From positions 3,480-67,479 of the forward strand of contig CAMJNS010000004.1 in NCBI GenBank assembly GCA_946407375.1: a stretch of 64,000 nucleotides of DNA, written 5' to 3'. Shown piece after piece: positions 2,491 to 22,440 of the stretch. A program made the translations under genes and the position numbers. Origin of the DNA: an uncultured bacterium. GTDB taxonomy: Bacteria > Muiribacteriota > Ozemobacteria > Ozemobacterales > Ozemobacteraceae. Every line of letters starts with the position of its first letter. Position 1 is the first letter of the stretch. A model generated the notes under the pieces. It searched no databases. It was not told where the DNA came from and saw nothing but the letters and a program-made list of their open reading frames with translations.

Positions 2491-4548
2491 ATGCAGAAAC
2501 AAATAAATATAAAAAGGCAAAACAAACAAATCCGAGGCATAATATTCCTCGCAATTTTCTATACCTTGTTTCAAATACCCCTTTTTGCATTTGAAGTTTC
2601 TGTTGACACACAAAAATATCCAGTAGAAGTTTACGGTGATTATCTTGAATACCGCACAAAAGATGAACAGGTTATAGCCAAAGGTAAGGCTTTTATTTCA
2701 TATCAAGATATGAAAATAAGCGGTGATAATATTCAAGCAAATACAGGAACAGAAGATATATTCGCACAGGGTGACGTAGACTTTTGGAAAGGCTACGATC
2801 AAGTTAGTGGCGATTTTATAGTATATAATATGAAAACTGGGCGAGGTTGGATGAGAAATGCAGAAGTTAGAAAAAGTCGTAACTATTTCAAAGCAAAAGA
2901 TGTTTATTTGAGTCCAGAACATACTTTGGCTCATGACATAATGCAAACGACCTGTGATAATATTGAACATCCTCATTATCGTTTGGAAGCTAAATTACTA
3001 GAAAGCTATCCAGGTCATTCAATGACAATGGAAGGACTACGTGCTAAATGGCGTGGGAAAACCATTTTTTATCAAGCTATCAATAGAAGCACTGAAAAAG
3101 ATAAAGGCGGAAAATTCTTTACATCTCGTCAGGGGTCTTCAGACATTGATGGTTACTATGTTAAGCTTGCCACAGATTTGTTTGTTAATGATTATTTGTC
3201 AGGTAAGCTTAATTATGATTGGTATGAAAAAAGAGGTTACGGCTATGGTTTCAATGGAACATACTCCGTTCCACACGACAAAGGTAGTGGTTCTCTGTAT
3301 TACTACGGTTTAAGTGAAACCAAAAGAGGACATTACAATAAACAAGTAAACCTTTCATACAATCTTACATTTAAAAGCGGCGAAACTTTTAGCACAACAA
3401 TAAATTATACTGGTGACAGATATAATGGTCAGCCAGAAAACCAGGATATGACTATTACTGCTATGTTCAGACCTGTTTTAAAATTTATTAATATGACAAT
3501 TAATATGAATAAATTTTATGATCTAGACAAGGATAAATATATTCTGGATAAAGCTTACCAATTCGTAAACAGATTGCCAGAAATCAATTTCAGCCTCCCA
3601 GCTTGGACAGCTCCATTAATTCCAATTACTATAAATTTCAGTGGAATGTATGGTCACTATGAAGAAAGTGAAGGCGAAGGGAAAAAAGATACAGAAAAGA
3701 AAGATGGAAGATTGACTTTCAGTTGCCCAGCAATAGAAATTCATCCCAAAACTCAAATAACTCCATCTTATAATTTTGAAAAGAGCTACTATACAGGTGA
3801 TATTGAACGTGAAAATGGTAATACAATGGTTCGCGCCAGCCATAAGTTTTCTAATGTAACAAATCTAGAATTCAACTACAACATCTCTACCTCAAAAGGT
3901 CGCTCACCATTCAAATTTGATAATGTTACAACTATAGATCAGACATCAACCAGACTTAGATTTGCAGAAAACTCCTGGATACTTAATCCTTTAAATTTCA
4001 ACTACAATAGGGCAACTCAAAGACTAGAACAGGTATATTGGGACTATACAAGACGCTCAACTACTGATGCTTACAGACCTTGGGAATTCTTTATGAGAAT
4101 GGATTATGTAGCAGACGCAAATACTCCGTTGTCTAAAATAAATTTTGGTGCTATTAGACCCAATAACTTTAATGCTCGTTACAGAATGTCTTCTCAATAT
4201 TGGTCCTTCGATACCAGTATTTCTGTTCCTCATCAATACAAGAAGATCTCTTCTACTTCTTTCAATTATTCAACAGTTATAAGACCTCTTTGGGCAATAA
4301 ATACATCTGGAACTTATAATAACATTAATCATAAAATGAGTCCTTTAACAATAGGACTTACAAGAGACCTACACTGCTGGGAAGCAAAAGCAGAATACAA
4401 CCACGAACGAAAAGAATTTTGGGTAGAATTCTATCTTAAAGCCTTTCCAAATGATAGTGGCCGCTTCAACTATGGTATGGATGACAATAAGCTTACTGCT
4501 AAACTAGCAGCTTATGACCAAATAGCTCAAAGATACGATAATTACTAA
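2491..4548 (+). CDS. lptD: LPS-assembly outer membrane protein LptD/OstA-like
   Basis: 685 aa. N-terminal hydrophobic signal. OstA-like N-domain (VYGDYLEYRTKDEQVIAKGKAFISYQDMKISGDNIQA...GDVDFW). Long aromatic-rich beta-barrel-like C-terminal part. Confidence 0.6.
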   Translation: MQKQINIKRQNKQIRGIIFLAIFYTLFQIPLFAFEVSVDTQKYPVEVYGDYLEYRTKDEQVIAKGKAFISYQDMKISGDNIQANTGTEDIFAQGDVDFWKGYDQVSGDFIVYNMKTGRGWMRNAEVRKSRNYFKAKDVYLSPEHTLAHDIMQTTCDNIEHPHYRLEAKLLESYPGHSMTMEGLRAKWRGKTIFYQAINRSTEKDKGGKFFTSRQGSSDIDGYYVKLATDLFVNDYLSGKLNYDWYEKRGYGYGFNGTYSVPHDKGSGSLYYYGLSETKRGHYNKQVNLSYNLTFKSGETFSTTINYTGDRYNGQPENQDMTITAMFRPVLKFINMTINMNKFYDLDKDKYILDKAYQFVNRLPEINFSLPAWTAPLIPITINFSGMYGHYEESEGEGKKDTEKKDGRLTFSCPAIEIHPKTQITPSYNFEKSYYTGDIERENGNTMVRASHKFSNVTNLEFNYNISTSKGRSPFKFDNVTTIDQTSTRLRFAENSWILNPLNFNYNRATQRLEQVYWDYTRRSTTDAYRPWEFFMRMDYVADANTPLSKINFGAIRPNNFNARYRMSSQYWSFDTSISVPHQYKKISSTSFNYSTVIRPLWAINTSGTYNNINHKMSPLTIGLTRDLHCWEAKAEYNHERKEFWVEFYLKAFPNDSGRFNYGMDDNKLTAKLAAYDQIAQRYDNY

Positions 4549-11089: not shown

Positions 11090-11479
11090 CGTCATTGCGA
11101 GCAGTCGTAAGACTGCGTGGCAATCCAGATATTTACTATTTCAAATTATAGAATTTTCCAATATAAATCTACCCAATTAGGATTTAGGCTTTCGATAAGT
11201 TTCAATTTATATTTTCTTGATCTAGCTTTAATTTGTTTTTCTCGTTCAATGGCATTATTGATATTGTCGTATTCCTCAAAATAACCTAACTTATCGACAG
11301 AATATTTTTTAGTAAAACCTTCATATAGTTTATTTTTATGTTCATAGACTCTACGTATTAAATCAGAAGTTGCTCCTGTATAAAGAGTTCCATTTCTTTT
11401 ACTGAACAAGATGTAAATATAACTGTTTTTATTCATATTATTTTTATCTAGATTGCCACGCCTTCGGCTCGCAATGACG
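11090..11479. mobile_element. GIY-YIG cassette bounded by inverted hairpin repeats (candidate small mobile unit)
   Basis: Left end CGTCATTGCGAG-CAGTCGTAAGACTG-CGTGGCAATC (11090-11126). Right end GATTGCCACG-CCTTCGG-CTCGCAATGACG (11451-11479), in inverted orientation. The unit sits between the two remnants of one Rpn-like gene. Confidence 0.4.
11146..11436 (-). CDS. GIY-YIG nuclease family protein (small stand-alone, UPF0213/YhbQ-like)
   Basis: 96 aa; SYIYILFSKRNGTLYTGATSDLIRRVYEHK ... EREKQIK. Confidence 0.88.
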   Translation of the reverse strand: MNKNSYIYILFSKRNGTLYTGATSDLIRRVYEHKNKLYEGFTKKYSVDKLGYFEEYDNINNAIEREKQIKARSRKYKLKLIESLNPNWVDLYWKIL

Positions 11480-11987: not shown

Positions 11988-12051
11988 AAATGGCAGAGAC
12001 TATCTTTATCGACAATAAAAACAATAACTACCGACTACAATAAAAACATAT

Positions 12052-12091
12052 AAAAAAATAGGTTAAGCTGAAAGCTTAACCTATTTTTTTT
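12052..12091. terminator. bidirectional terminator just downstream of the displaced nfnB 3' fragment
   Basis: A7-ATAGGTTAAGCT-GAA-AGCTTAACCTAT-T7. Confidence 0.65.
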
Positions 12092-12096
12092 ATTAC

Positions 12097-12320
<224 letters not shown>

Positions 12321-12349
12321 TTGAAGAGGAAAAGTTGAGGTAAGTATTT

Positions 12350-15034
12350 ATGTCTGATTTGTCTGTTTTTTATATATTAGATCTTTCTGAAAGTATGAAA
12401 GGTGAAAAACTTGATATACTTAATCATACTGTTGAAGAATGTAACGAAACCTTATTAGAATTAGCAAATGAAAAGAACGCTGAATTAAAAGTGGCAATGA
12501 TGACATTCTCAGATGGCTGTGACTGGATAACTCCACACGGACCAGAACCTATAGAAGATTTTGCTTTTAATTATTTTCAAAATACAAGTGGCTTGAGTAA
12601 TCTAGGTATTGCATTATATGAATTAAATAAAAATATTACAGACATAAATTTTTATAATATTTCTTCAAAAGATTACTTACCAGTAATAATTATTATAACA
12701 GATAAAGACAATATAGATAATTATGAAAACATTCTAAAATTTGTTAAAACAAATAATATTTATGAAAACTCTATAAAAATAGCTTATACCATAGGCAACA
12801 ATCAAAATACAGAATTATTATCTTATATTACAGATAATAAAAATTCAATAATTACTAAAAGCAATGAGAATTTTAGGGAAATTATTAAAATATTTGGAAA
12901 AACTACAAGTCAAAATAATAAAGAAATAATAAAAAATCAAATAAGAAAATTAATTCAAAAAAAGCAGTATGAAGAAGCAAAAGAATTAACCAAAGAATTA
13001 GGTAACGAAAAAGAATCTTATGAAAATGTAATTCTTGGTTGTATGTATATTGTTGGCAAAGGTGTGGAAAAGAATTACGAAGAAGCAGTTAAATATGCCA
13101 AGTTAAGTGCTGAACAAGGAAACCCTCTAGGACAATGCTTGCTGGGGCAATGTTATTATTTTGGTAATGGTGTGGAACAAAATTATGAAGAAGCTTTTAA
13201 ATACTTCAAGTTAAGTGCTGAACAAGGAGATTCAGCAGGACAAATGCGGTTAGGAATTTATTATCTTTATGATAATGGGATAGAACAAAATTACGAAGAA
13301 GCTTTTAAATATTTCAAGTTAAGTGCTGACCAAGGAGATTCAGATGGACAATGGGCTCTTGCTAAATATTATTATGAGAACAGTGTGAAACAGAATTACG
13401 ATGAAGCTTTTAAATATGCCAAGTTAAGTGCTGAACAAGGAAACCCTCTAGGACAATGCTTGCTGGGGCAATGTTATTATTTTGGTAATGGTGTGGAACA
13501 AAATTATGAAGAAGCTTTTAAATACTTCAAGTTAAGTGCTGAACAAGGAGATTCAGATGGACAATGGGTTCTTGCTGAATATTATTATGGTAACAGTGTG
13601 AAACAGAATTACGAAGAAGCAGTTAAATATGCCAAGTTAAGTGCTGAACAAGGTAATTCAAATGCACAATGTTTGTTGGGGAAATGTTATTATTTCGGTA
13701 ATGGTGTAGAGCAAAATTACGAAGAAGCTGTTAAATATTTCAAATTAAGTGCTGACCAAGGTAATTCAAATGCACAATGGGCTCTTGCTGAATATTATTA
13801 TGGTAATGATGTGGAACAAAATTATGAAGAAGCTTTTAAATATGCCAAGTTAAGTGCTGAACAAGAGAATTCTCATGGGCAATGCTTGTTGGGGCAATGT
13901 TATTTATTTAGTAATAGTACAGAACAGAATTACGAGGAAGCTTTTAAATTATTCAAGTTAAGTGCTGAACAAGGAGATTCAGATGGACAAAAGTGGTTAG
14001 GTATTTGTTATCTTAATGGAATTGGTATAAAACAGAATTACGAAGAAGCTTTTAAAAATTTCAAGTTAAGTGCAGAAAAAGAAAATGCTCACGGGCAATG
14101 CTTGTTAGGGCAATGTTATTATTATGGGAATGGTGTAAAACAGAATTACGAGGAAGCTTTTAAATATTTCAAGTTAAGTGCAGAAAAAGGACACGCTCAC
14201 GGACAATGCATGTTGGGACAATGTTATTATTATGGTAATGGTGTTGAAAAGAATTACGAAGAAGCCTTTAAATATTTTAAGTTAAGTGCGGAACAAGGAG
14301 ATTCAGATGGACAAAAGTGGTTAGGAATCTGTTATTATGATGGTGATGGTGTAGAAAAGAATTATGAAGAAGCTTTTAAATATGCCAAGTTAAGTGCTGA
14401 ACAAGGGAATTCTCATGGGCAATGCTTGTTGGGGCTATGTTATTCTTTTGGTAATGGTGTAAAACAGAATTATGAAGAAGCTTTTAAATACTTCAAATTA
14501 AGTGCTGACCAAGGGAATAAACTAGGACAACGTTATGTTGGATTCTTATGTTACTATTATGGACAAGGCATTAAAGCAAATAATGAGGAAGCTTTTAAGT
14601 ATATGAAGTTAAGTGCTGACCAAGGGGATAGCTTTTCACAATATTGGATTGGATCAAATTATTATGATGGTTTTAATGTTAAACAAAATTTTGAAGAAGC
14701 TTTTAAATACTTAAAACTCAGTGCTGACCAAGGAGAAAATCTAGCGCAATATAATCTTGGTAAGATGTATTATAATGGCGATGGAATACCTAAAAATTAC
14801 AAAGAAGCATTTAAATATATGAAGTTAAGCGCTGACCAAGGTAATGCTGATGGACAATATGAAGTTGGAAAAATGTATTTAGATGGCATAGGTGTAAAAA
14901 GAAACCAGGAAGAAGGAATAAGATACATTAAATTAAGTGCAGATCAAGGTAATTTAACAGCAAAAGGGTATTTGATAAGATCAAATATAACCAAGGGTTT
15001 CTTAAATGCAATTGGTAATATTTTTAAAAAATGA
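12350..15034 (+). CDS. vWA domain protein fused to ~18 Sel1-like (SLR) repeats
   Basis: 894 aa. N-terminal vWA with MIDAS DxSxS (FYILDLSESMKG) and a VIIIITD strand. From ~aa 205, an array of 35-36-aa units (NYEEAFKYFKLSAEQGDSDGQ..LG.CYY.GNGVEQ). Confidence 0.85.
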   Translation: MSDLSVFYILDLSESMKGEKLDILNHTVEECNETLLELANEKNAELKVAMMTFSDGCDWITPHGPEPIEDFAFNYFQNTSGLSNLGIALYELNKNITDINFYNISSKDYLPVIIIITDKDNIDNYENILKFVKTNNIYENSIKIAYTIGNNQNTELLSYITDNKNSIITKSNENFREIIKIFGKTTSQNNKEIIKNQIRKLIQKKQYEEAKELTKELGNEKESYENVILGCMYIVGKGVEKNYEEAVKYAKLSAEQGNPLGQCLLGQCYYFGNGVEQNYEEAFKYFKLSAEQGDSAGQMRLGIYYLYDNGIEQNYEEAFKYFKLSADQGDSDGQWALAKYYYENSVKQNYDEAFKYAKLSAEQGNPLGQCLLGQCYYFGNGVEQNYEEAFKYFKLSAEQGDSDGQWVLAEYYYGNSVKQNYEEAVKYAKLSAEQGNSNAQCLLGKCYYFGNGVEQNYEEAVKYFKLSADQGNSNAQWALAEYYYGNDVEQNYEEAFKYAKLSAEQENSHGQCLLGQCYLFSNSTEQNYEEAFKLFKLSAEQGDSDGQKWLGICYLNGIGIKQNYEEAFKNFKLSAEKENAHGQCLLGQCYYYGNGVKQNYEEAFKYFKLSAEKGHAHGQCMLGQCYYYGNGVEKNYEEAFKYFKLSAEQGDSDGQKWLGICYYDGDGVEKNYEEAFKYAKLSAEQGNSHGQCLLGLCYSFGNGVKQNYEEAFKYFKLSADQGNKLGQRYVGFLCYYYGQGIKANNEEAFKYMKLSADQGDSFSQYWIGSNYYDGFNVKQNFEEAFKYLKLSADQGENLAQYNLGKMYYNGDGIPKNYKEAFKYMKLSADQGNADGQYEVGKMYLDGIGVKRNQEEGIRYIKLSADQGNLTAKGYLIRSNITKGFLNAIGNIFKK

Positions 15035-15071
15035 GTTTTATTAATTTGTTTTTTCATTAAGGATATATGAT

Positions 15072-18000
15072 ATGGCAAACGACTTAGTTAAACAAAATAA
15101 ACTTATAGATAATTTAAATAAAATAGCATACACCATAGATAAAGCATATATGGCAAAATTAGATTCTGAGTATGCAGTTATACCTTTTGATGTTTTACAC
15201 AATAATAAAGATAATAGTGTTTCCTATAAACATAATATTAGAGCCTTAAAAATAGACAAGTGGGTTTTTGATAGAGATGAAAACCCTGGCAAATGTTTTA
15301 AAAACGTATTAAATGCCTTTGCAGATGGTGATCATACATTAGCACTTGTAGTAAAAAGAACTCCAACAGAAACACAAATGTATTTTGTTGTTAAAAATGA
15401 AGGCGAAGGTAGAGCATTAACTACTAAAACCAATCTTAATCTGCTAGAAGATACTATTACTGGCAATTTTCAGGGAACAAAAGCAGAAAAAATAATTAAT
15501 GAAAATAAATTAGAAGATATTTTTTCTTTTGAAAAAAACATTAGTTCTATTGCCTTAATGACTAATACTCCATCAGAATATACAGAAGATTATATCGGTC
15601 AAGGTATAGACAAGCTTTTAAATGGCGTAGTTCCAGAAAATGAATTTGAAAGTTATACTGTTGTTTTTCTTGCTGAATCCTTATCTCCAGAAAGTTTAAT
15701 GCAAATATTGTCTGGTTATGAAGAAATGGCTACAGCTATAAGCCCATTTGAACAACAACAATTTCAAATAGGAAAATCGACAACTTCTACAAAAGGAGAA
15801 AGCTATTCTGAAACTATTGGTGAAATGACTTCTTTAACCAATTCAGAAAGTACTAGTGATTCTATTTCTAAGACACATTCTGTAAATATAGGTTTAAACG
15901 GTGGAATTAATTATGGTAATACTGAGAATCGCTCATTAAATTTAAGTAAAATTTGTGATGATATTAAAGATAATTGGGAAAAAAATAAAAGTAAAGGTTG
16001 GAAAACAGCTGTTATATCTGTAGCAGGAAGTGGTTTGATAACAGCTGTTATCAATAGTTTTAGTACAAATGTTGGTTTATCTGGTGGTTACGGATATAGC
16101 TGGGGTAATACAAAAACTGACACAACAGGTGTATCTAAAACCGTTGGCAACAACAATAGTGAGACAACAGGAACAAGCACTAGCCTTGCATTAGGAGAAA
16201 GCGAAAACACTACTTTTTCATATAAAAATTATAAAATAAGCAATATGCTTGAAAAGCTTAAACTTACAATGGACCGAATAAACAAAAGCAAGGCAACAGG
16301 CTTATGGAAGTTTTCCACTTATATTATGTCTGAAAAAGCTAAAACAACAAAAAATATAGCCAATATTTTAAAAGGCATTACCCAAGGGAAAAATTCATAT
16401 ATAGAACCTGCTTTTATTCAAGAATGGACAAATTTAAATCCTAAAAAAGAGATTTTTTCGGAAATAAGAAAATATTTACATTTTTTTACTCATCCTGTTT
16501 TCTTTACTGCAGACCAGGAACTGAATAACGCAATGGCTGTAACGCCAACTTCTTTTGTTGCTACAGACGAATTATCAAATGTTATAGTTTTCCCTAAAAA
16601 ATCATTACAAGGATTGCCTGTTTTGCAGGGAACACAATTTGGTCGAGAACCTCATTCTTTATTAGATGCAAAATACGATTTGCTTTTAGGAAAAGGTTAT
16701 CATATGCATCAAACTTATCAAAAGCAAGAAATTTCTATTTCTTCAAATGATCTGCTTAACCACACTTTTGTTACAGGCTCAACTGGTGCTGGTAAATCTA
16801 ATGCTATTTATCAACTTTTGGAACAAACAACAAAATTAGGAGTTCATTTCCTTGTTATAGAACCAGCTAAGGGGGAATATAAAAGCTTTTTCGGTAAAAG
16901 AGATGATGTAAAAGTTTTTGGAACAAACCCCTTATTAAAAGATATTCAATTATTAAGAATAAATCCGTTCAGTTTCCCTATAGAAAATACTCATATTTTG
17001 GAACATTTAGACAGACTTGTAGAAATATTCAATGTTTGCTGGCCTATGTATGCTGCGATGCCTGCTGTTTTAAAAGATGCCATAGAACAGGCTTACATAA
17101 ATGCTGGTTGGGATTTGACCAAATCTGAAAATAAATATGACAACAGAATTTTCCCGACATTTGCAGATGTTTTGAAAGAAATAAAAAATGTAATGAATAA
17201 TAGCGAATACTCTGATGAAAATAAGGGTAATTATTCTGGAGCATTACAAACGAGATTGAAATCTCTTACTAACGGTATAAACGGTCAGATATTCTCAAAT
17301 GATTCTATTTCTGATGAAGAATTATTCGATAAAAATGTAATAATAGATTTAAGCAGAGTTGGCTCTACAGAAACAAAAGCTTTAATAATGGGACTTTTGA
17401 TTTTGAAACTACAAGAACACAGAATGGCTAGTCCTGAAATTAACTCTGAATTAAAACATATTACTGTTATTGAAGAAGCTCATAATCTATTGAAGAGAAC
17501 ATCTACAGAGCAGGTTTCCGAAAGTTCAAATCTTTTAGGAAAATCTGTAGAAATGCTTGCAAACGCAATAGCAGAAATGAGAACTTATGGTGAGGCTTTT
17601 GTTATTGCTGATCAGTCACCAGGATTACTTGATATGTCTGTAATCAGAAATACCAATACAAAAATAATATTAAGACTTCCTGATTATTCTGACAGAGAGT
17701 TAGTAGGAAGAGCTGCTGGCCTTAACGAAGAACAGATAATTGAACTTGGAAGACTTGAAAAAGGTGTAGCAGTAATTAGACAGAATGATTGGCTTGAACC
17801 TGTTTTGTGCAAAATTGATAAATTTAATGAAAGCAAATATTCCAATAATAATAAATCTAACAATAGTTTTAATCTGTCTAATGATAGCATTAATGAATCT
17901 GTATCTAAAGCTCTTGTGGAAGCTATAATGACAGGTAAAATCAATAATATTGAAGAAAACGTATATGAGCTTAATGAATTAAAAGAACTTATAATAAAAT

Positions 18001-18323
18001 CAAATCTTGAGACTGCTATAAAATGTGAATTTATTAATTGTCTTTTAATAAAAGACCACAATTTATCTGCTTTAACAACTCTTTGTTATGACTTTTTTCA
18101 TGCTTCAAAAGCGGTAGAATTAGCAAAAAAATGTGGCAATATTGAAAGTTGGAGTCAGTGCTTAACTTCAAATCTTGTTCCGAATGTAGAAAGTTATAAT
18201 AATGAGCAAATAAACAGATTGTTAGCTTTAATTGTTATTGAAATCAAAAACAGAGACCCTTTTTACAATAAACTCTTTTGTCGATTTACTGAGGTTTATA
18301 AAGAAAGGGGTAGTATTTTATAA
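15072..18323 (+). CDS. large HerA/FtsK-superfamily (DUF87-like) P-loop ATPase with novel N-terminal region and one hydrophobic helix
   Basis: 1083 aa. Walker A FVTGSTGAGKSN, Walker B HITVIEEAHNLL, FVIADQSPGLLD and NTNTKIILRLP. S/T/G/N-rich segments (aa ~230-390) flank TAVISVAGSGLITAVINSF. Confidence 0.75.
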   Translation: MANDLVKQNKLIDNLNKIAYTIDKAYMAKLDSEYAVIPFDVLHNNKDNSVSYKHNIRALKIDKWVFDRDENPGKCFKNVLNAFADGDHTLALVVKRTPTETQMYFVVKNEGEGRALTTKTNLNLLEDTITGNFQGTKAEKIINENKLEDIFSFEKNISSIALMTNTPSEYTEDYIGQGIDKLLNGVVPENEFESYTVVFLAESLSPESLMQILSGYEEMATAISPFEQQQFQIGKSTTSTKGESYSETIGEMTSLTNSESTSDSISKTHSVNIGLNGGINYGNTENRSLNLSKICDDIKDNWEKNKSKGWKTAVISVAGSGLITAVINSFSTNVGLSGGYGYSWGNTKTDTTGVSKTVGNNNSETTGTSTSLALGESENTTFSYKNYKISNMLEKLKLTMDRINKSKATGLWKFSTYIMSEKAKTTKNIANILKGITQGKNSYIEPAFIQEWTNLNPKKEIFSEIRKYLHFFTHPVFFTADQELNNAMAVTPTSFVATDELSNVIVFPKKSLQGLPVLQGTQFGREPHSLLDAKYDLLLGKGYHMHQTYQKQEISISSNDLLNHTFVTGSTGAGKSNAIYQLLEQTTKLGVHFLVIEPAKGEYKSFFGKRDDVKVFGTNPLLKDIQLLRINPFSFPIENTHILEHLDRLVEIFNVCWPMYAAMPAVLKDAIEQAYINAGWDLTKSENKYDNRIFPTFADVLKEIKNVMNNSEYSDENKGNYSGALQTRLKSLTNGINGQIFSNDSISDEELFDKNVIIDLSRVGSTETKALIMGLLILKLQEHRMASPEINSELKHITVIEEAHNLLKRTSTEQVSESSNLLGKSVEMLANAIAEMRTYGEAFVIADQSPGLLDMSVIRNTNTKIILRLPDYSDRELVGRAAGLNEEQIIELGRLEKGVAVIRQNDWLEPVLCKIDKFNESKYSNNNKSNNSFNLSNDSINESVSKALVEAIMTGKINNIEENVYELNELKELIIKSNLETAIKCEFINCLLIKDHNLSALTTLCYDFFHASKAVELAKKCGNIESWSQCLTSNLVPNVESYNNEQINRLLALIVIEIKNRDPFYNKLFCRFTEVYKERGSIL

Positions 18324-18988
18324 TGTTTGAAAGTATTGGTAAAATAGTAGAAGTAGCTGAGACAGCAGCAAAAGAAGTTGCTGCTAATGTTGAAAAGATT
18401 GTTCCCGAAAGTGGTATTAGTCTAAAAGAAGCTGATGAATACTGGAACAAGTTTTTTGCTCCTAAAAACAATATAGAAAAGAAATCTACTGATAGTTTCT
18501 CTAATAACTATTATGATGATAACAATGAAGTTTATCGAAAAGGTAATGATTTGGTTCCCAATCATGATTATGAAATAAACGGATACAAATATCATACTGA
18601 TGAAATTGGTAGAATATCTTCGGCAGAGGGTAATTTACATTTAAAAGATAGAGAGGGGCGTCTTCCAATAAAAGATTCTATTGAAAACATTGGGAAAGGC
18701 TATGAATTACCTAATGATGATAGAGGGCATCTTATTGCCGACCAGTTTGGCGGCTCTAATGGCTTAGAAAATCTGATTCCACAAGATGCAGAAGTAAATA
18801 GAAAAGATTTTATGAATTTTGAAAACAAACTTGCTAATGAAGTTAAGAATGGTAATGAAGTTTATATAAAAAATGAGCCTAATTATGAAGGTAATTCTAG
18901 AAGACCAAGTGAATTTATTGTAACTTATTCTGTGAATGGCACTGAAAATATAAGGATTTTCCCAAATGGCAAGGAGATTAATAAATGA
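18323..18988 (+). CDS. DNA/RNA non-specific endonuclease toxin (Endonuclease_NS_2 type, EsaD/YeeF/YqcG-like) with short helical N-terminal region
   Basis: 221 aa; NDDRGHLIADQFGGSNGLENLIPQDAEVNRKDF motif; start overlaps the ATPase stop (TAATG at 18321-18325). Confidence 0.7.
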   Translation: MFESIGKIVEVAETAAKEVAANVEKIVPESGISLKEADEYWNKFFAPKNNIEKKSTDSFSNNYYDDNNEVYRKGNDLVPNHDYEINGYKYHTDEIGRISSAEGNLHLKDREGRLPIKDSIENIGKGYELPNDDRGHLIADQFGGSNGLENLIPQDAEVNRKDFMNFENKLANEVKNGNEVYIKNEPNYEGNSRRPSEFIVTYSVNGTENIRIFPNGKEINK

Positions 18989-19314
18989 AAAATATAATGA
19001 ACGAAGAAATATACCAAAAAATATGCGATATTTTAGTTAATGTGTTGCCTGAAAAATGGGAAAATATAGTTTTTAAAGCCGAATATGGTGAAGAAAGCTA
19101 TGAAATGAAATATTGGGTCGATTCAGGAAATGGAGAGCTTAAAGACTGTTTTGAGTTAGCTGTTGTTCCCAAATCACAGATGGTGAAAACTTTTATAGCT
19201 TTAAATAAAGTTATTGCACCAGAACGAAATGCATTAGAACCAAAGCACAAATGGAAAATAATGACACTAAAGGTTTCTTCAAAAGGGAAATTCAACGCTG
19301 ATTTTGAATATTAA
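18985..19314 (+). CDS. cognate immunity protein, DUF600 (EsaG/YezG)-like
   Basis: 109 aa; ATGA overlap with the toxin stop; AAGGAG RBS. The size and the WENIVF..EYGEESYEMKYWV...KWKIMTLKVSSKGKFNADFEY pattern resemble DUF600 immunity proteins. Confidence 0.55.
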   Translation: MKNIMNEEIYQKICDILVNVLPEKWENIVFKAEYGEESYEMKYWVDSGNGELKDCFELAVVPKSQMVKTFIALNKVIAPERNALEPKHKWKIMTLKVSSKGKFNADFEY

Positions 19315-19358
19315 ATGTGTTGTTAGAATAGAAAATATTTATTAGGAGAGCAAAATAT

Positions 19359-19796
19359 TTGAAAGTATATTTGGATAATTGTTGTTTCAATAGACCTTAT
19401 GATGACCAATCTTATATCAAAATATCATTAGAATCAAAAGCCAAGCTTTATATACAGAATTTAATAAGAAAGAAGAAAATAGATTTAGTTTCTTCATACA
19501 TGATTCTATATGAAAATGGTCTAAATCCATTTTCTATGAGGAAAAATCCAATAAAAGAATTTATCAATAAAAACACATCTCTTTTTATTCCTTATGAAAA
19601 ACATGTTATAATTGAAGAAATGGCATTAGAAATAATGAATACAGGAATAAAATATAAAGATGCCTGTCATGTCGCTTGTAGTTTGTTAGGACAATGTTCT
19701 TATTTTATTACTACAGATAATAGGTTACTTAAATACAAAAATAGTAATCTCAAACCGATTAATCCTATTGATTTTGTAAGAAATTTGGAGGAATAA
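19359..19796 (+). CDS. PIN-domain ribonuclease toxin
   Basis: 145 aa; TTG start with AGGAG RBS. Acidic residues are placed as in PIN (VYLDNCCF, ..EE.., KDACHVA, ITTDNRLL). Confidence 0.65.
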   Translation: MKVYLDNCCFNRPYDDQSYIKISLESKAKLYIQNLIRKKKIDLVSSYMILYENGLNPFSMRKNPIKEFINKNTSLFIPYEKHVIIEEMALEIMNTGIKYKDACHVACSLLGQCSYFITTDNRLLKYKNSNLKPINPIDFVRNLEE

Positions 19797-19797
19797 A

Positions 19798-20031
19798 ATG
19801 GAAGCTAATACTGTTGAAATTATGAATAAAGGTATGAAATGCTTACTTGATAATCTAGGAATAGTAGAAGCAGAATATTTTATTTCTACTGTTATTAGGG
19901 AAAAATTTGATTACACTAAGTGGCAACAAGAGTATTTTGATAAAATTCCACCAAATGAATTAAATGAGAAATTAGCTGATTTTGCTAAAAATTACAAATT
20001 TGAGGGCAATCCAGAAGTATTACTCAAATAA
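19798..20031 (+). CDS. small partner protein of the PIN toxin (putative antitoxin, downstream position)
   Basis: 77 aa; starts 1 nt after the PIN stop; LGIVEAEYFISTVIREKFDYTKWQQEYF pattern recalled from small proteins paired with this PIN subfamily. Confidence 0.4.
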   Translation: MEANTVEIMNKGMKCLLDNLGIVEAEYFISTVIREKFDYTKWQQEYFDKIPPNELNEKLADFAKNYKFEGNPEVLLK

Positions 20032-20194
20032 TTTTTTATTATCTAGATTGCCACGGCGTTTTCAACGCCTCGCAATTGACGCATGACAGAGACCAAGGGT
20101 TTACTCTAGTTCGGTCACCCTCCCTTTTATTACTTCCCTCAAGGGAGGGCTTATGACAATCACACCAACCACAGCCTACGCCAGTAAAACCAAA

Positions 20195-20223
20195 AGACAC
20201 TTGCGAGTAGCAAGTGTCTTTTT
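20195..20223 (+). terminator. hairpin terminator within the mosaic
   Basis: AGACACTTGC-GAGTA-GCAAGTGTCT-TTTT; variant copy at 20654-20683. Confidence 0.5.
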
Positions 20224-20342
20224 AAGATTAAACCTAAGTTATAAAAATCCCCCAGTCACCGATTGCTTCGCAATCACCCCTCCTCAAGGAGAGGCTTTAG
20301 GACAATAAAAACCACAAAAACCAACTACAATAAAAACAAAAA

Positions 20343-20371
20343 AGCGGTTAGATTAATGCTAACCGCTTTTT
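20343..20371. terminator. hairpin terminator after boundary motif J5
   Basis: AGCGGTTAG-ATTAATG-CTAACCGCT-TTTTT. Confidence 0.55.
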
Positions 20372-20380
20372 CTCTTCTAA

Positions 20381-20952: not shown

Positions 20953-22440
20953 TTATTTCAAGTATTTTTCCTTGAGGTATTTATCCATACCAGCGGCGGC
21001 TCGGCGGCCGTCACCCATGGCAAGAATTACTGTAGCGCCACCGCGAACGATGTCGCCACCAGCGAAGATTTCTTCCATAGAAGCCTGATTGGATTCAGGA
21101 TTTACTTCGATTGTGCCTTTCTTGCCCTGTTTGAGTTCTGGCAAGCAAGAAGGAATCAATGGATTTGGAGAAACGCCGATAGCAACTACTACTATATCTA
21201 CGTCTAGTTCTTCGATTGCGCCTGGGATTTCTACTGGTCTGCGTCTGCCAGAAGCATCTGGTTCACCCAATTCCATCTTCTGCAAGCGAACTTTGGCAAC
21301 TCTGCCGTTTTCGCCAGCGATGTATTCGATTGGGTTGTGAAGAGTCATAAATTCAACGCCTTCTTCTTCAGCGTGTTTGACTTCTTCAAGACGGGCTGGC
21401 ATTTCATCTCTAGAACGTCTGTAAACGATGATTGATCTATCAGCACCAAGTCTCTTAGAGGTTCTTACAGAGTCCATAGCGGTGTTACCACCACCAACGA
21501 CTACAACAACTTTGCCTTTAAGAACTGGAGTGTCAGTGTCTTCACGGTTAGCACCCATGAGGTTTACACGAGTGAGGTATTCGTTAGAAGACATAACGCC
21601 GTTGAGGTTTTCACCAGGAATATTCATGAAGTTCGGGAAACCTGCACCAGAACCAACATAGAAAGCCTTGAAGCCCTGAGCCTTCAAATCATCAAATGTA
21701 GCGGTTTTTCCAACAACGAAGTTCTTTTCGAACTTAACGCCCATCTTAGAAAGGTTGGCAAGTTCCAAATCTACGATTGAGTTTGGAAGACGGAATTCAG
21801 GAATACCATATTTGAGAACGCCGCCGATTTCGTGGAGAGCTTCGAATACAGTTACATCATAACCAGCTTTTGCCATATCGCCAGCAAAAGAGAGTGCTGA
21901 TGGACCTGAACCAACTGCGGCAACCTTGATGCCGTTTTTCTTTTCCATTTTTGGAAGTTTGGGTTCGATGCCGTTTAAGCGTTCATAGTCAGCAGCAAAT
22001 CTTTCAAGATAGCCAATAGCTACAGCTGGTTTCTTCATCTTGAGGTAAGTGCACTTGGATTCGCATTGTTTTTCCTGTGGGCAAACACGACCGCAAACTG
22101 CTGGAAGAGCACTGAATTCTTTTAATGTTGCAGCAGCTTCTTCAAATTCGCCGCGTTCAATGTTTTTAACAAACTTTGGAATGTTAATGCCTACTGGACA
22201 ACCTTCAGTGCAAGGGTGATTGGGGCAATCCATACAGCGGGTTGCTTCTAATACAGCCTGTTCTTTGGTTAAACCAGTGTTAACTTCGATAGTCTGTGAT
22301 TTAATGCGTTCTGCTGGAGCGATTTCGTTCATCTTCACTCTTTCAATAGCAGTGCGTTCTTTCATCGGAGTCTTGTTGCGGAGTTCTTCTCTCCAGGTTT
22401 CTTCTCTGTCTTTTGCAAAAATATCATTCATATCTGACAT
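20953..22440 (-). CDS. nfnB: NADPH-dependent glutamate synthase small-chain family oxidoreductase (NfnB/SudA-type; often annotated gltA/gltD)
   Basis: Two Cys clusters (CMDCPNHPCTEGCPVGINIP; CGRVCPQEKQCESKC). Two dinucleotide folds (VAAVGSGPSALSFAGD; VVVVGGGNTAMD). I prefer ATG at 22440 (MSDMNDIF..), 20 nt after the nfnA stop, over the ORF-track start at 22503. Confidence 0.85.
   Translation of the reverse strand: MSDMNDIFAKDREETWREELRNKTPMKERTAIERVKMNEIAPAERIKSQTIEVNTGLTKEQAVLEATRCMDCPNHPCTEGCPVGINIPKFVKNIERGEFEEAAATLKEFSALPAVCGRVCPQEKQCESKCTYLKMKKPAVAIGYLERFAADYERLNGIEPKLPKMEKKNGIKVAAVGSGPSALSFAGDMAKAGYDVTVFEALHEIGGVLKYGIPEFRLPNSIVDLELANLSKMGVKFEKNFVVGKTATFDDLKAQGFKAFYVGSGAGFPNFMNIPGENLNGVMSSNEYLTRVNLMGANREDTDTPVLKGKVVVVVGGGNTAMDSVRTSKRLGADRSIIVYRRSRDEMPARLEEVKHAEEEGVEFMTLHNPIEYIAGENGRVAKVRLQKMELGEPDASGRRRPVEIPGAIEELDVDIVVVAIGVSPNPLIPSCLPELKQGKKGTIEVNPESNQASMEEIFAGGDIVRGGATVILAMGDGRRAAAGMDKYLKEKYLK

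Follow-up and report, generated by a model that had tools for sequence, protein, structure and literature searches.

A leader-tagged nuclease and its immunity protein as the putative swappable effector of a HerA/VirB4-like ATPase module in an uncultured Ozemobacteraceae bacterium

What handles a secretion-type DNase that is accompanied by its immunity protein but has no recognizable delivery domain? The question is raised by 2 overlapping genes at positions 18323-19314 of a 64,000-nucleotide stretch of DNA, hereafter the window, from an uncultured bacterium of the family Ozemobacteraceae (assembly GCA_946407375.1, contig CAMJNS010000004.1, positions 3,480 to 67,479 of the forward strand). The original prediction, made from the sequence alone, read the 2 genes as a nuclease/immunity pair in the style of type VIIb secretion systems (T7SSb), encoded in a diderm host, and supposed that the short N-terminus of the toxin may be a handle recognized either by the ATPase encoded immediately upstream or by a neighboring array of Sel1 repeats. 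Our comparison of sequences and predicted structures gives good support to the view of the toxin as a swappable effector that bears a leader and is tied to the ATPase, with the class of the leader matched to the C-terminal domain of the ATPase. The features of the pair, all on the + strand, are as follows.

18323..18988, +, toxin, 221 amino acids (aa), EsaD/EssD-type nuclease
18323..18457, +, leader, toxin residues 1-45 (MFESIGKIVEVAETAAKEVAANVEKIVPESGISLKEADEYWNKFF)
18557..18937, +, EsaD/EssD-type His-Me nuclease domain, toxin residues 79-205
18728..18730, +, codon CAT of the predicted catalytic His136
18985..19314, +, YezG/DUF600-type immunity protein, 109 aa
18321..18325, +, sequence TAATG, overlap of the ATPase stop and the toxin start
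18985..18988, +, sequence ATGA, overlap of the toxin stop and the immunity gene start

The toxin matches the Pfam family Endonuclea_NS_2 over residues 79-205 (E 3.5e-31, 108.6 bits against a cut-off of 27), and a profile of 24 toxin homologues matches EssD/EsaD of Staphylococcus aureus (PDB 8GUO, E 4.5e-22). In a Foldseek search with the AlphaFold model of the toxin, the top entry was 8GUN (E 3.6e-9; identity 34-38%). His136, within the motif DDRGH, falls on the EsaD position that is mutated in 8GUN, the H528A crystal form, and the catalytic His of the DxxGH motif is invariant across the 24 homologues. The product of the second gene is YezG-like according to Pfam (E 3.3e-9, 37.5 bits against a cut-off of 21.7) and matches the DUF600 structure BH3703 (E 1.4e-4). 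These matches confirm that the toxin carries an EsaD/EssD-type nuclease domain with a predicted catalytic His136 and that the 109-aa open reading frame (ORF) directly downstream is predicted to encode a YezG/DUF600 (EsaG-like) immunity protein. The T7SSb-style pair, the nuclease fold with its DRGH histidine and both gene overlaps are thus as originally predicted. So is the missing delivery domain: residues 1-78 of the toxin contain no LXG, WXG or any other Pfam domain, and neither a two-partner secretion (TPS) domain nor a PAAR domain or signal sequence was found in the toxin by a Pfam/library scan. Of the 398 toxin homologues, many have a length of ~224 aa and can be aligned to 97-99% of the query, N-terminus included.

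Could such a toxin be the substrate of a conventional exporter encoded elsewhere, be it a T7SS in the unassembled 14% of the genome or a TPS locus? The HPr kinase of the bacterium clusters at 90% identity with proteins of Candidatus Riflebacteria/Ozemobacteraceae, and its genome assembly, of 2.97 Mb, is 86% complete. BamA and LpxC are both present, and the organism is therefore a diderm, as had been proposed from the markers in the window. A genome-wide search for T7SS, type VI secretion system (T6SS) and contact-dependent inhibition loci recovered neither WXG100 proteins nor TssC, the T6SS sheath protein, nor an EssC-type ATPase in this 86%-complete genome, the only strong FtsK/SpoIIIE match being an 800-aa frame; no export locus with matching adaptor genes was found. 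Giant frames with TPS domains (823 to 4,082 aa) are present on contigs C104, C87, C107 and C155 of the same genome, which thus offers giant exoproteins a type V route; this has no relation to the 221-aa toxin. These giants and the incompleteness of the assembly are what can be said for a conventional exporter; given the negative searches, the lack of a TPS, LXG, PAAR or signal sequence in the toxin, and a leader that belongs to an ATPase-linked family, we hold it to be extremely improbable.

The N-terminus of the toxin is short, as predicted, but not the helical region of ~60 aa that had been expected: in the AlphaFold model, residues 1-30 form a low-confidence coil and a single helix covers residues 34-45. 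A hidden Markov model (HMM) of this leader was built from 39 related loci, leaving out the window locus and its near-twin, the metagenome locus L007 (consensus: MNEIKKTEVNEIKKPEVENYKEIKPEGGMTVEEAKDFWDNLFK). Its sole match in a six-frame translation of the 2.97-Mb genome is the window toxin ORF (E 1.4e-7). Across 1.5 Mb of related loci, it matches the gene directly after the ATPase gene in 51 of 78 loci, and the only other matches are to a second effector ~1 kb further on. Against 1.84 billion representative proteins, the leader profile matched 273 proteins; among the 150 matches listed, no protein is longer than 332 aa and the leader is located at the N-terminus or close to it, and the domains recognized in the 46 near-full-length matches are those of DNases, with one metallopeptidase and one PhoU match. 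At least 4 unrelated DNase families, plus a metallopeptidase, carry this leader at their N-terminus. Where scanned, the second leader-bearing effector ~1 kb past the ATPase gene (L038:9071-9757, L047:5554-6240, and ~8 more loci) is a 229-aa DUF6782/SprT-like Zn-metallopeptidase followed by a gene for 98 aa, and the leader is therefore not restricted to nucleases. Collectively, these comparisons confirm the N-terminus of the toxin as a predicted leader of ~45 residues that is conserved family-wide, and not, as had been considered beforehand, an unconserved stretch.

The leader can be set against the ATPase, of which the following parts matter here.

15072..18323, +, HerA/VirB4-like ATPase, 1083 aa, the constant core of the module
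15771..16211, +, Ser/Thr/Gly/Asn-rich insert, residues 234-380, predicted local distance difference test score (pLDDT) <50
16677..17831, +, P-loop ATPase core, residues 536-920, delimited by invariant columns in 81 sequences and by the model
17880..18320, +, C-terminal helical domain (C-domain), residues 937-1083, putative leader receptor

Mapped on the ATPase tree, the toxin family shows 34 changes (mean of shuffles, 43.8) and the leader class 9 (shuffles: mean 22, minimum 17); exchange of the toxin is thus nearly unrestricted, whereas the leader stays with the ATPase. Close relatives illustrate the exchange: the ATPases of L032 and L034 are 94% identical and the leader is kept, but the nuclease families differ, and the leader is likewise kept and the nuclease family changed between L013 and L015 and between L042 and L066, so that a constant N-terminal region stands on non-homologous toxin domains. 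The reverse is seen in the streptococcal pairs L059/L061 and L049/L076, which have ATPase cores 97-98% and N-terminal domains 95-99% identical but C-domains just 13% identical, and in which the leaders differ. Among 242 pairs of loci with ATPase cores at least 75% identical (related pairs, not independent ones), all 47 with a C-domain identity below 30% have dissimilar leaders; the Spearman coefficient is 0.79 for C-domain versus leader and 0.25 for core versus leader. Single-linkage clustering of the C-domains yielded one cluster of 53 loci, of which 52 have the window leader, as opposed to none of the remaining 25 loci. The N-terminal domain of the window ATPase is closest to those of L009-L019; the leader is present in L009-L011, with C-domains 34-37% identical to that of the window, and absent from L012-L020, with C-domains 8-18% identical. 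No locus was found in which a matching C-domain is combined with a foreign leader class, even though a gene boundary separates the two. Such co-variation of leader and C-domain is what a handle read by the ATPase predicts.

The same observations bear on whether the two genes form a self-contained toxin-antitoxin or addiction module that is no more than a neighbor of the ATPase gene and stabilizes a mobile block, its N-terminal region having no partner. Overlapping genes within a mobile 8-kb block that adjoins other toxin-antitoxin-like pairs would fit this explanation. However, in all contexts of toxin homologues inspected, the start of the nuclease gene overlaps the stop codon of the gene for a DUF87 ATPase of 1,025-1,118 aa and a YezG-like gene comes next; the leader occurs nowhere else in the 1.5 Mb of loci or in the own genome, and its class tracks the C-domain; and no leader-bearing nuclease with an immunity gene but without a nearby ATPase was found in the genome and loci searched. 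We consider an addiction module very unlikely.

The other reader of the leader that had been suggested, the Sel1 array, did not hold up. The protein encoded upstream of the ATPase combines an N-terminal vWA domain (~residues 8-118, with the metal-ion-dependent adhesion site DLSES) with ~18 Sel1 repeats (Sel1 E 2.6e-164; VWA_2 E 2.2e-4, the latter below the Pfam cut-off).

12350..15034, +, vWA-Sel1 protein, 894 aa, upstream partner of the ATPase

It has no signal peptide and no hydrophobic 19-mer of 1.4 or more; it is soluble and occupies the slot of the dynamin-like GTPase in most related loci. Indeed, one to three dynamin-like GTPase genes are found just upstream of the ATPase gene in most relatives, and the upstream partner of ~850 aa is a Dynamin_N protein in 54 of 57 loci elsewhere, whereas the vWA-Sel1 form is confined to the window and L007. 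Sel1 proteins with a different N-terminal domain occur in L039 and L063, and the partner in L028 is, judging from its sequence pattern, probably of the Sel1 type too; the ATPase N-terminal domains of these loci are 19-22% identical to that of the window.

L039:5927-8245, Sel1-repeat partner, Lachnospiraceae-type locus
L063:7841-9808, Sel1-repeat partner, Lachnospiraceae-type locus
L028:8057-9958, Sel1-repeat partner, Lachnospiraceae-type locus

The window, L007, L039, L063 and L028 all have one leader class although their Sel1-type loci are of differing kind, and the Sel1 array is therefore not the match of the leader. It was rejected as the leader reader also because the same leader is present in dynamin-type loci without a Sel1 protein and because Sel1 partners arose in at least 2 ATPase lineages. 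As side observations, the 3 Lachnospiraceae-type partners have in common a distinct N-terminal domain of ~100 aa, without vWA, and those of L063 and L028 end in a hydrophobic motif, VL[IV]P[IV].N, which in L039 is located in a separate 97-aa ORF.

Directly ahead of the ATPase gene, 33 of 73 loci code for a protein that passes the membrane once; it is tail-anchored in all 18 sequences examined one by one.

L009-L020, L026, L027, L050, L058, L072, L075, L095:6938-7498 and L096:5603-6475, tail-anchored protein, ~120-290 aa, one C-terminal transmembrane helix

The window locus encodes no membrane protein, its only hydrophobic stretch being a weak 19-mer in the ATPase insert, and it has vWA-Sel1 in place of a dynamin. 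A dynamin acting in trans was also rejected: genome-wide, Dynamin_N matches are short and limited to frames of 297-476 aa, the size of small GTPases, and mostly cover the P-loop alone.

The ATPase itself matches DUF87 (E 3.9e-14), with the Walker A motif GSTGAGKSN at residues 569-577. Its AlphaFold model has a pLDDT of 78.4, and the Foldseek relatives are VirB4/TrwK, HerA, HerA-NurA, SIR2-HerA, DUF4297-HerA and DndH. No second copy was found in the own genome, and PADLOC returned only generic HerA and mad8 matches at the locus and no system-specific model. The only moderately hydrophobic 19-mer, TAVISVAGSGLITAVINSF (residues 312-330, Kyte-Doolittle mean 1.58), lies inside the insert, which measures 63 to about 270 aa in different family members. 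A Gly-rich hydrophobic segment is present in the insert of ~10 of 81 family members, and no transmembrane helix is conserved across the 81, for which reason a membrane-embedded translocon was rejected. With its flanks, the insert region spans about residues 226-385 (15747-16226); the flanks are conserved, amphipathic and beta-like (e.g., SSATVGVNVGASAGIQNG), and AlphaFold draws long low-confidence hairpins in the insert.

How widespread is this arrangement? Counting from one genome per species, we identified at least 545 loci of the ATPase family, in both monoderms and diderms, including Lachnospiraceae, Streptococcus, Treponema, Bifidobacterium, Thermoguttaceae, Selenomonadaceae and Paenibacillus. 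Within the phylum of the window bacterium, the module is sporadic: matches to the ATPase core were found in 6 of 87 genomes, at 33-38% identity bar one fragment 67% identical. In 71 of 83 loci, the gene following that of the ATPase overlaps its stop codon by 1 or 4 nucleotides. This gene, in 78 loci, encodes Endonuclea_NS_2 (24), Colicin-DNase/WHH (24), LHH (12), Ntox15 (1) or a DUF6782 metallopeptidase (1), to which sequence clustering of the effectors adds an AHH-like cluster, and the gene after the effector encodes SUKH, YezG, DUF6985 or Tdi1. All recognized effectors are DNases or the SprT-like metallopeptidase, and none was recognized as an RNase, deaminase, NADase or pore-former. WYL regulators are encoded upstream in many related loci, and some relatives adjoin genes of the bacteriophage exclusion (BREX) system, of cyclic-oligonucleotide-based antiphage signaling systems (CBASS), or of restriction-modification or Abi systems.

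The module also travels on plasmids. The Lactococcus cremoris plasmid p158B (L095; NZ_CP016686.2) carries genes for a WYL protein, two dynamins, two small proteins, the ATPase, an HNH nuclease and a further small protein, next to an Abi gene. A complete dynamin-type module is encoded by the conjugative plasmid pTW10590_133 of Escherichia coli TW10590 (L096; NZ_CP035852.1) in the order two dynamin genes, hypothetical gene, ATPase, HNH/EndoVII nuclease and SMI1/KNR4 gene; this is a copy found in 1 of 5,426 complete E. coli genomes. Both of these dynamin-type copies are on conjugative plasmids.

In the window, the module is part of a larger block, the remaining features of which are listed below.

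12093..20123, +, whole cargo block, 80-91% identical by blastn to the metagenome locus L007:4118-11799
12093-12197 and 20953-21056 (window), 4118-4221 and 12005-12096 (L007), copies of the 3' end of an nfnB/gltA-like gene, ~100 bp, 93-96% identical
12052-12090 and 20192-20372, terminator-like hairpins flanking six genes, all on the + strand
18303..18310, +, Shine-Dalgarno-like GAAAGGGG, within the last ATPase codons (KERGSIL)
19359..20031, +, gene pair encoding 145 aa and 77 aa, conserved with the block in L007
8720-9903, just upstream of the block, gene of an AbiEii nucleotidyltransferase toxin and its overlapping upstream partner gene
11146-11436, just upstream of the block, GIY-YIG protein, 96 aa

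Since copies of the 3' end of the nfnB/gltA-like gene bound it in both the window and L007, the 8-kb block of six genes looks like a cargo module inserted at the end of that gene. The L007 block sits at the nfnB/gltA-like gene end without the AbiE and GIY-YIG modules, which in the window occupy the same low-GC island as the block. No terminator-like hairpin is present on the + strand between 12243 and 20192; a promoter scan in this AT-rich DNA was uninformative, with 41 sites against 42.5 expected. The Shine-Dalgarno-like GAAAGGGG is spaced 12-13 nucleotides from the toxin ATG, and the GG conserved family-wide near the ATPase C-terminus may in part be a ribosome-binding site for the coupled gene. 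The 145-aa/77-aa pair is co-inherited with the four-gene module inside the same block in the window and L007, but it had no match in Pfam, NCBIfam, PADLOC or a PDB sequence search; a label of "PIN-like" for the 145-aa neighbor was dropped, as nothing matched in any library or the PDB.

What, then, might the module do? We favor, with a probability of roughly 0.42, an intracellular motor with a docked DNase that acts against invading DNA. A hexameric HerA/VirB4-like ATPase would be the center of a four-gene module, with the nuclease and immunity genes as its interchangeable effector cassette. The leader would dock on the C-terminal helical domain, translational coupling could supply one toxin per ATPase subunit, and the YezG-type immunity protein would keep the docked DNase inactive. 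The soluble vWA-Sel1 protein may act as the input or sensor, in place of the dynamin-like GTPases of the relatives, often accompanied by a tail-anchored membrane protein. Once triggered, the motor would either take hold of the DNA of an invading phage or plasmid or separate the toxin from its immunity protein, and the nuclease would cut DNA within the producing cell, in a HerA-NurA-like arrangement with a safety catch; inhibitors captured by invaders could drive the swapping of nuclease/immunity pairs.

We favor this intracellular role because all recognized effectors act on DNA or DNA-bound protein, because the closest folds of the ATPase are DNA motors and HerA-effector defense complexes, and because there is no conserved membrane channel and the window locus lacks a membrane protein. 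Further reasons are that the module pairs with a membrane-bound or a soluble input, in monoderms and diderms alike, that the upstream inputs are interchangeable (dynamin, Sel1/TPR-S, vWA-Sel1), that WYL regulators are common upstream and defense genes lie near some loci, and that the window block adjoins AbiEii in an accessory block and is sporadic in the phylum.

Several observations weigh against this interpretation. About a third of the effectors have no recognizable domain, and the defense-gene neighbors are raw occurrences, compared with no background rate. C-domain and leader are encoded side by side, so that simple linkage accounts for part of their co-inheritance. Cognate SUKH, YezG or Tdi1 immunity together with a leader-plus-swappable-toxin layout is a hallmark of toxins delivered between bacteria, and we know of no described phage-defense system that uses both. 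Furthermore, variants of the secretion ATPase EssC also tie a variable C-terminus to the downstream effectors (PMC4788903, PMC5994694).

The main alternative is the export of the toxin for interbacterial competition: the C-domain would read the leader, strip the immunity protein and expel the DNase, following a T7SS-like logic with different parts, and the membrane step would be provided by the dynamin-like GTPases and the tail-anchored protein, or by vesicles, with neighbors that lack the immunity gene being killed. The architecture agrees with such a role, as it is that of polymorphic toxins with cognate SUKH, YezG, DUF6985 or Tdi1 immunity genes, in which toxins are exchanged just behind a retained leader and some loci have tandem effectors, each with a leader and its own downstream gene. 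The C-domain varies with the effector leader in the manner of the substrate-specifying variants EssC1-4 (PMC4788903, PMC5994694, PMC10327511), the best fold matches include VirB4 of type IV secretion, a single-pass membrane protein precedes the ATPase in close to half of the loci (the 33 of 73 above), and a link between dynamin-like proteins of bacteria and the release of vesicles has been reported (PMC10240201). However, neither a channel-forming nor an envelope-spanning component was found, the ATPase has no conserved transmembrane segment, and the vWA-Sel1 form in the window has neither a dynamin nor a membrane protein, yet its diderm host presents two membranes to cross. The effectors, of ~200 aa, have no receptor-binding or translocation domain, their recognized repertoire is limited to DNA-directed enzymes, and one-to-one translational coupling fits a stable complex better than the relation of an enzyme to its substrate. 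Export is thus possible but, on this balance, somewhat doubtful.

Which known system does the module resemble most? The nuclease and immunity domains are those of the EsaD/EsaG families, while the overall module appears undescribed in the literature that we searched. As in S. aureus EsaD(EssD)/EsaG of the T7SSb, a homologous nuclease with an aligned catalytic His is followed directly by a DUF600/YezG immunity gene and has next to it a HerA/FtsK-superfamily ATPase, the C-terminal region of which varies with the effector set (PMC9484751, PMC5994694). Unlike EsaD, however, the window toxin has no long N-terminal T7SS targeting region, and its ~45-residue leader is unrelated to LXG. Furthermore, the own genome has neither WXG100/EsxA nor EssC with its FHA domain, transmembrane segments and three ATPase domains; the window ATPase has a single ATPase domain, is HerA/VirB4-like and is without a conserved transmembrane helix, and the host is diderm. 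The module was accordingly rejected as a T7SS, the targeting domain, WXG100 and EssC having been searched for and not found in the 86%-complete genome.

Polymorphic toxin systems likewise combine a constant N-terminus with swappable C-terminal toxins and an immunity gene immediately downstream (PMC3482391; for SUKH, PMC3113570), and the toxin families WHH, LHH, AHH-like, Colicin-DNase and Ntox15 and the immunity families SUKH and Tdi1 are common to both. By contrast, none of the trafficking modes listed for them (PMC3482391) fits the module, the toxins of which are very short (~190-330 aa) and, as far as recognized, solely DNA-directed. In the surveys of polymorphic toxins of 2011 and 2012, the HerA/FtsK terms looked for are used only for YueA/T7SS and type IV ATPases (PMC3482391, PMC3113570), and "dynamin" is absent from the latter (PMC3482391). 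S8-PTS (PMC9424270) is a different system, and contact-dependent inhibition and other two-partner secretion toxins differ from the 221-aa toxin, which has no N-terminal TPS domain.

The anti-phage complexes SIR2-HerA (Nezha) and DUF4297-HerA and the archaeal HerA-NurA have a HerA-like fold, an adjacent effector that attacks a nucleic acid or cofactor, and a hexameric motor with a docked-effector model. Their effectors are, however, SIR2, DUF4297 or NurA, without an immunity protein or a leader-tagged cassette, whereas that of the window is a His-Me nuclease with an immunity protein, and the window ATPase is ~2x longer, with extra N-terminal, Ser/Gly-rich and C-terminal domains. Eleos (LeoA/LeoBC) resembles the module in that most relatives encode dynamin-like GTPases upstream, but it is a two-gene dynamin system not known to include an ATPase, toxin or immunity gene; the module in the window, which has no dynamin, was rejected as Eleos. 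Full-text literature searches found no published description of a dynamin/ATPase/leader-toxin module. We tentatively propose an undescribed conflict machine, in which the C-domain of a HerA/VirB4-like hexamer would read the leader on immunity-guarded DNases, the inputs would be swappable, and the vWA-Sel1 form would be wholly intracellular.

Pairs of polymorphic toxins and immunity proteins are usually taken for weapons that depend on a known secretion system; here, such a pair is welded to a different motor, in a module that has spread to hundreds of species, including streptococci, gut Lachnospiraceae and spirochaetes, as well as to a lactococcal dairy plasmid and a conjugative E. coli plasmid. 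The rule linking leader and C-domain is a testable specificity code, which predicts the toxins that a given ATPase can handle. Either destination of the toxin would be new, be it export without T7SS parts or DNA-directed defense by immunity-guarded DNases. Should the intracellular interpretation prove true, this would be the first defense system shown to have bacteriocin-type toxin/immunity pairs as its effector stage, and in either case, the annotation of thousands of "orphan" short nuclease/immunity pairs would change.

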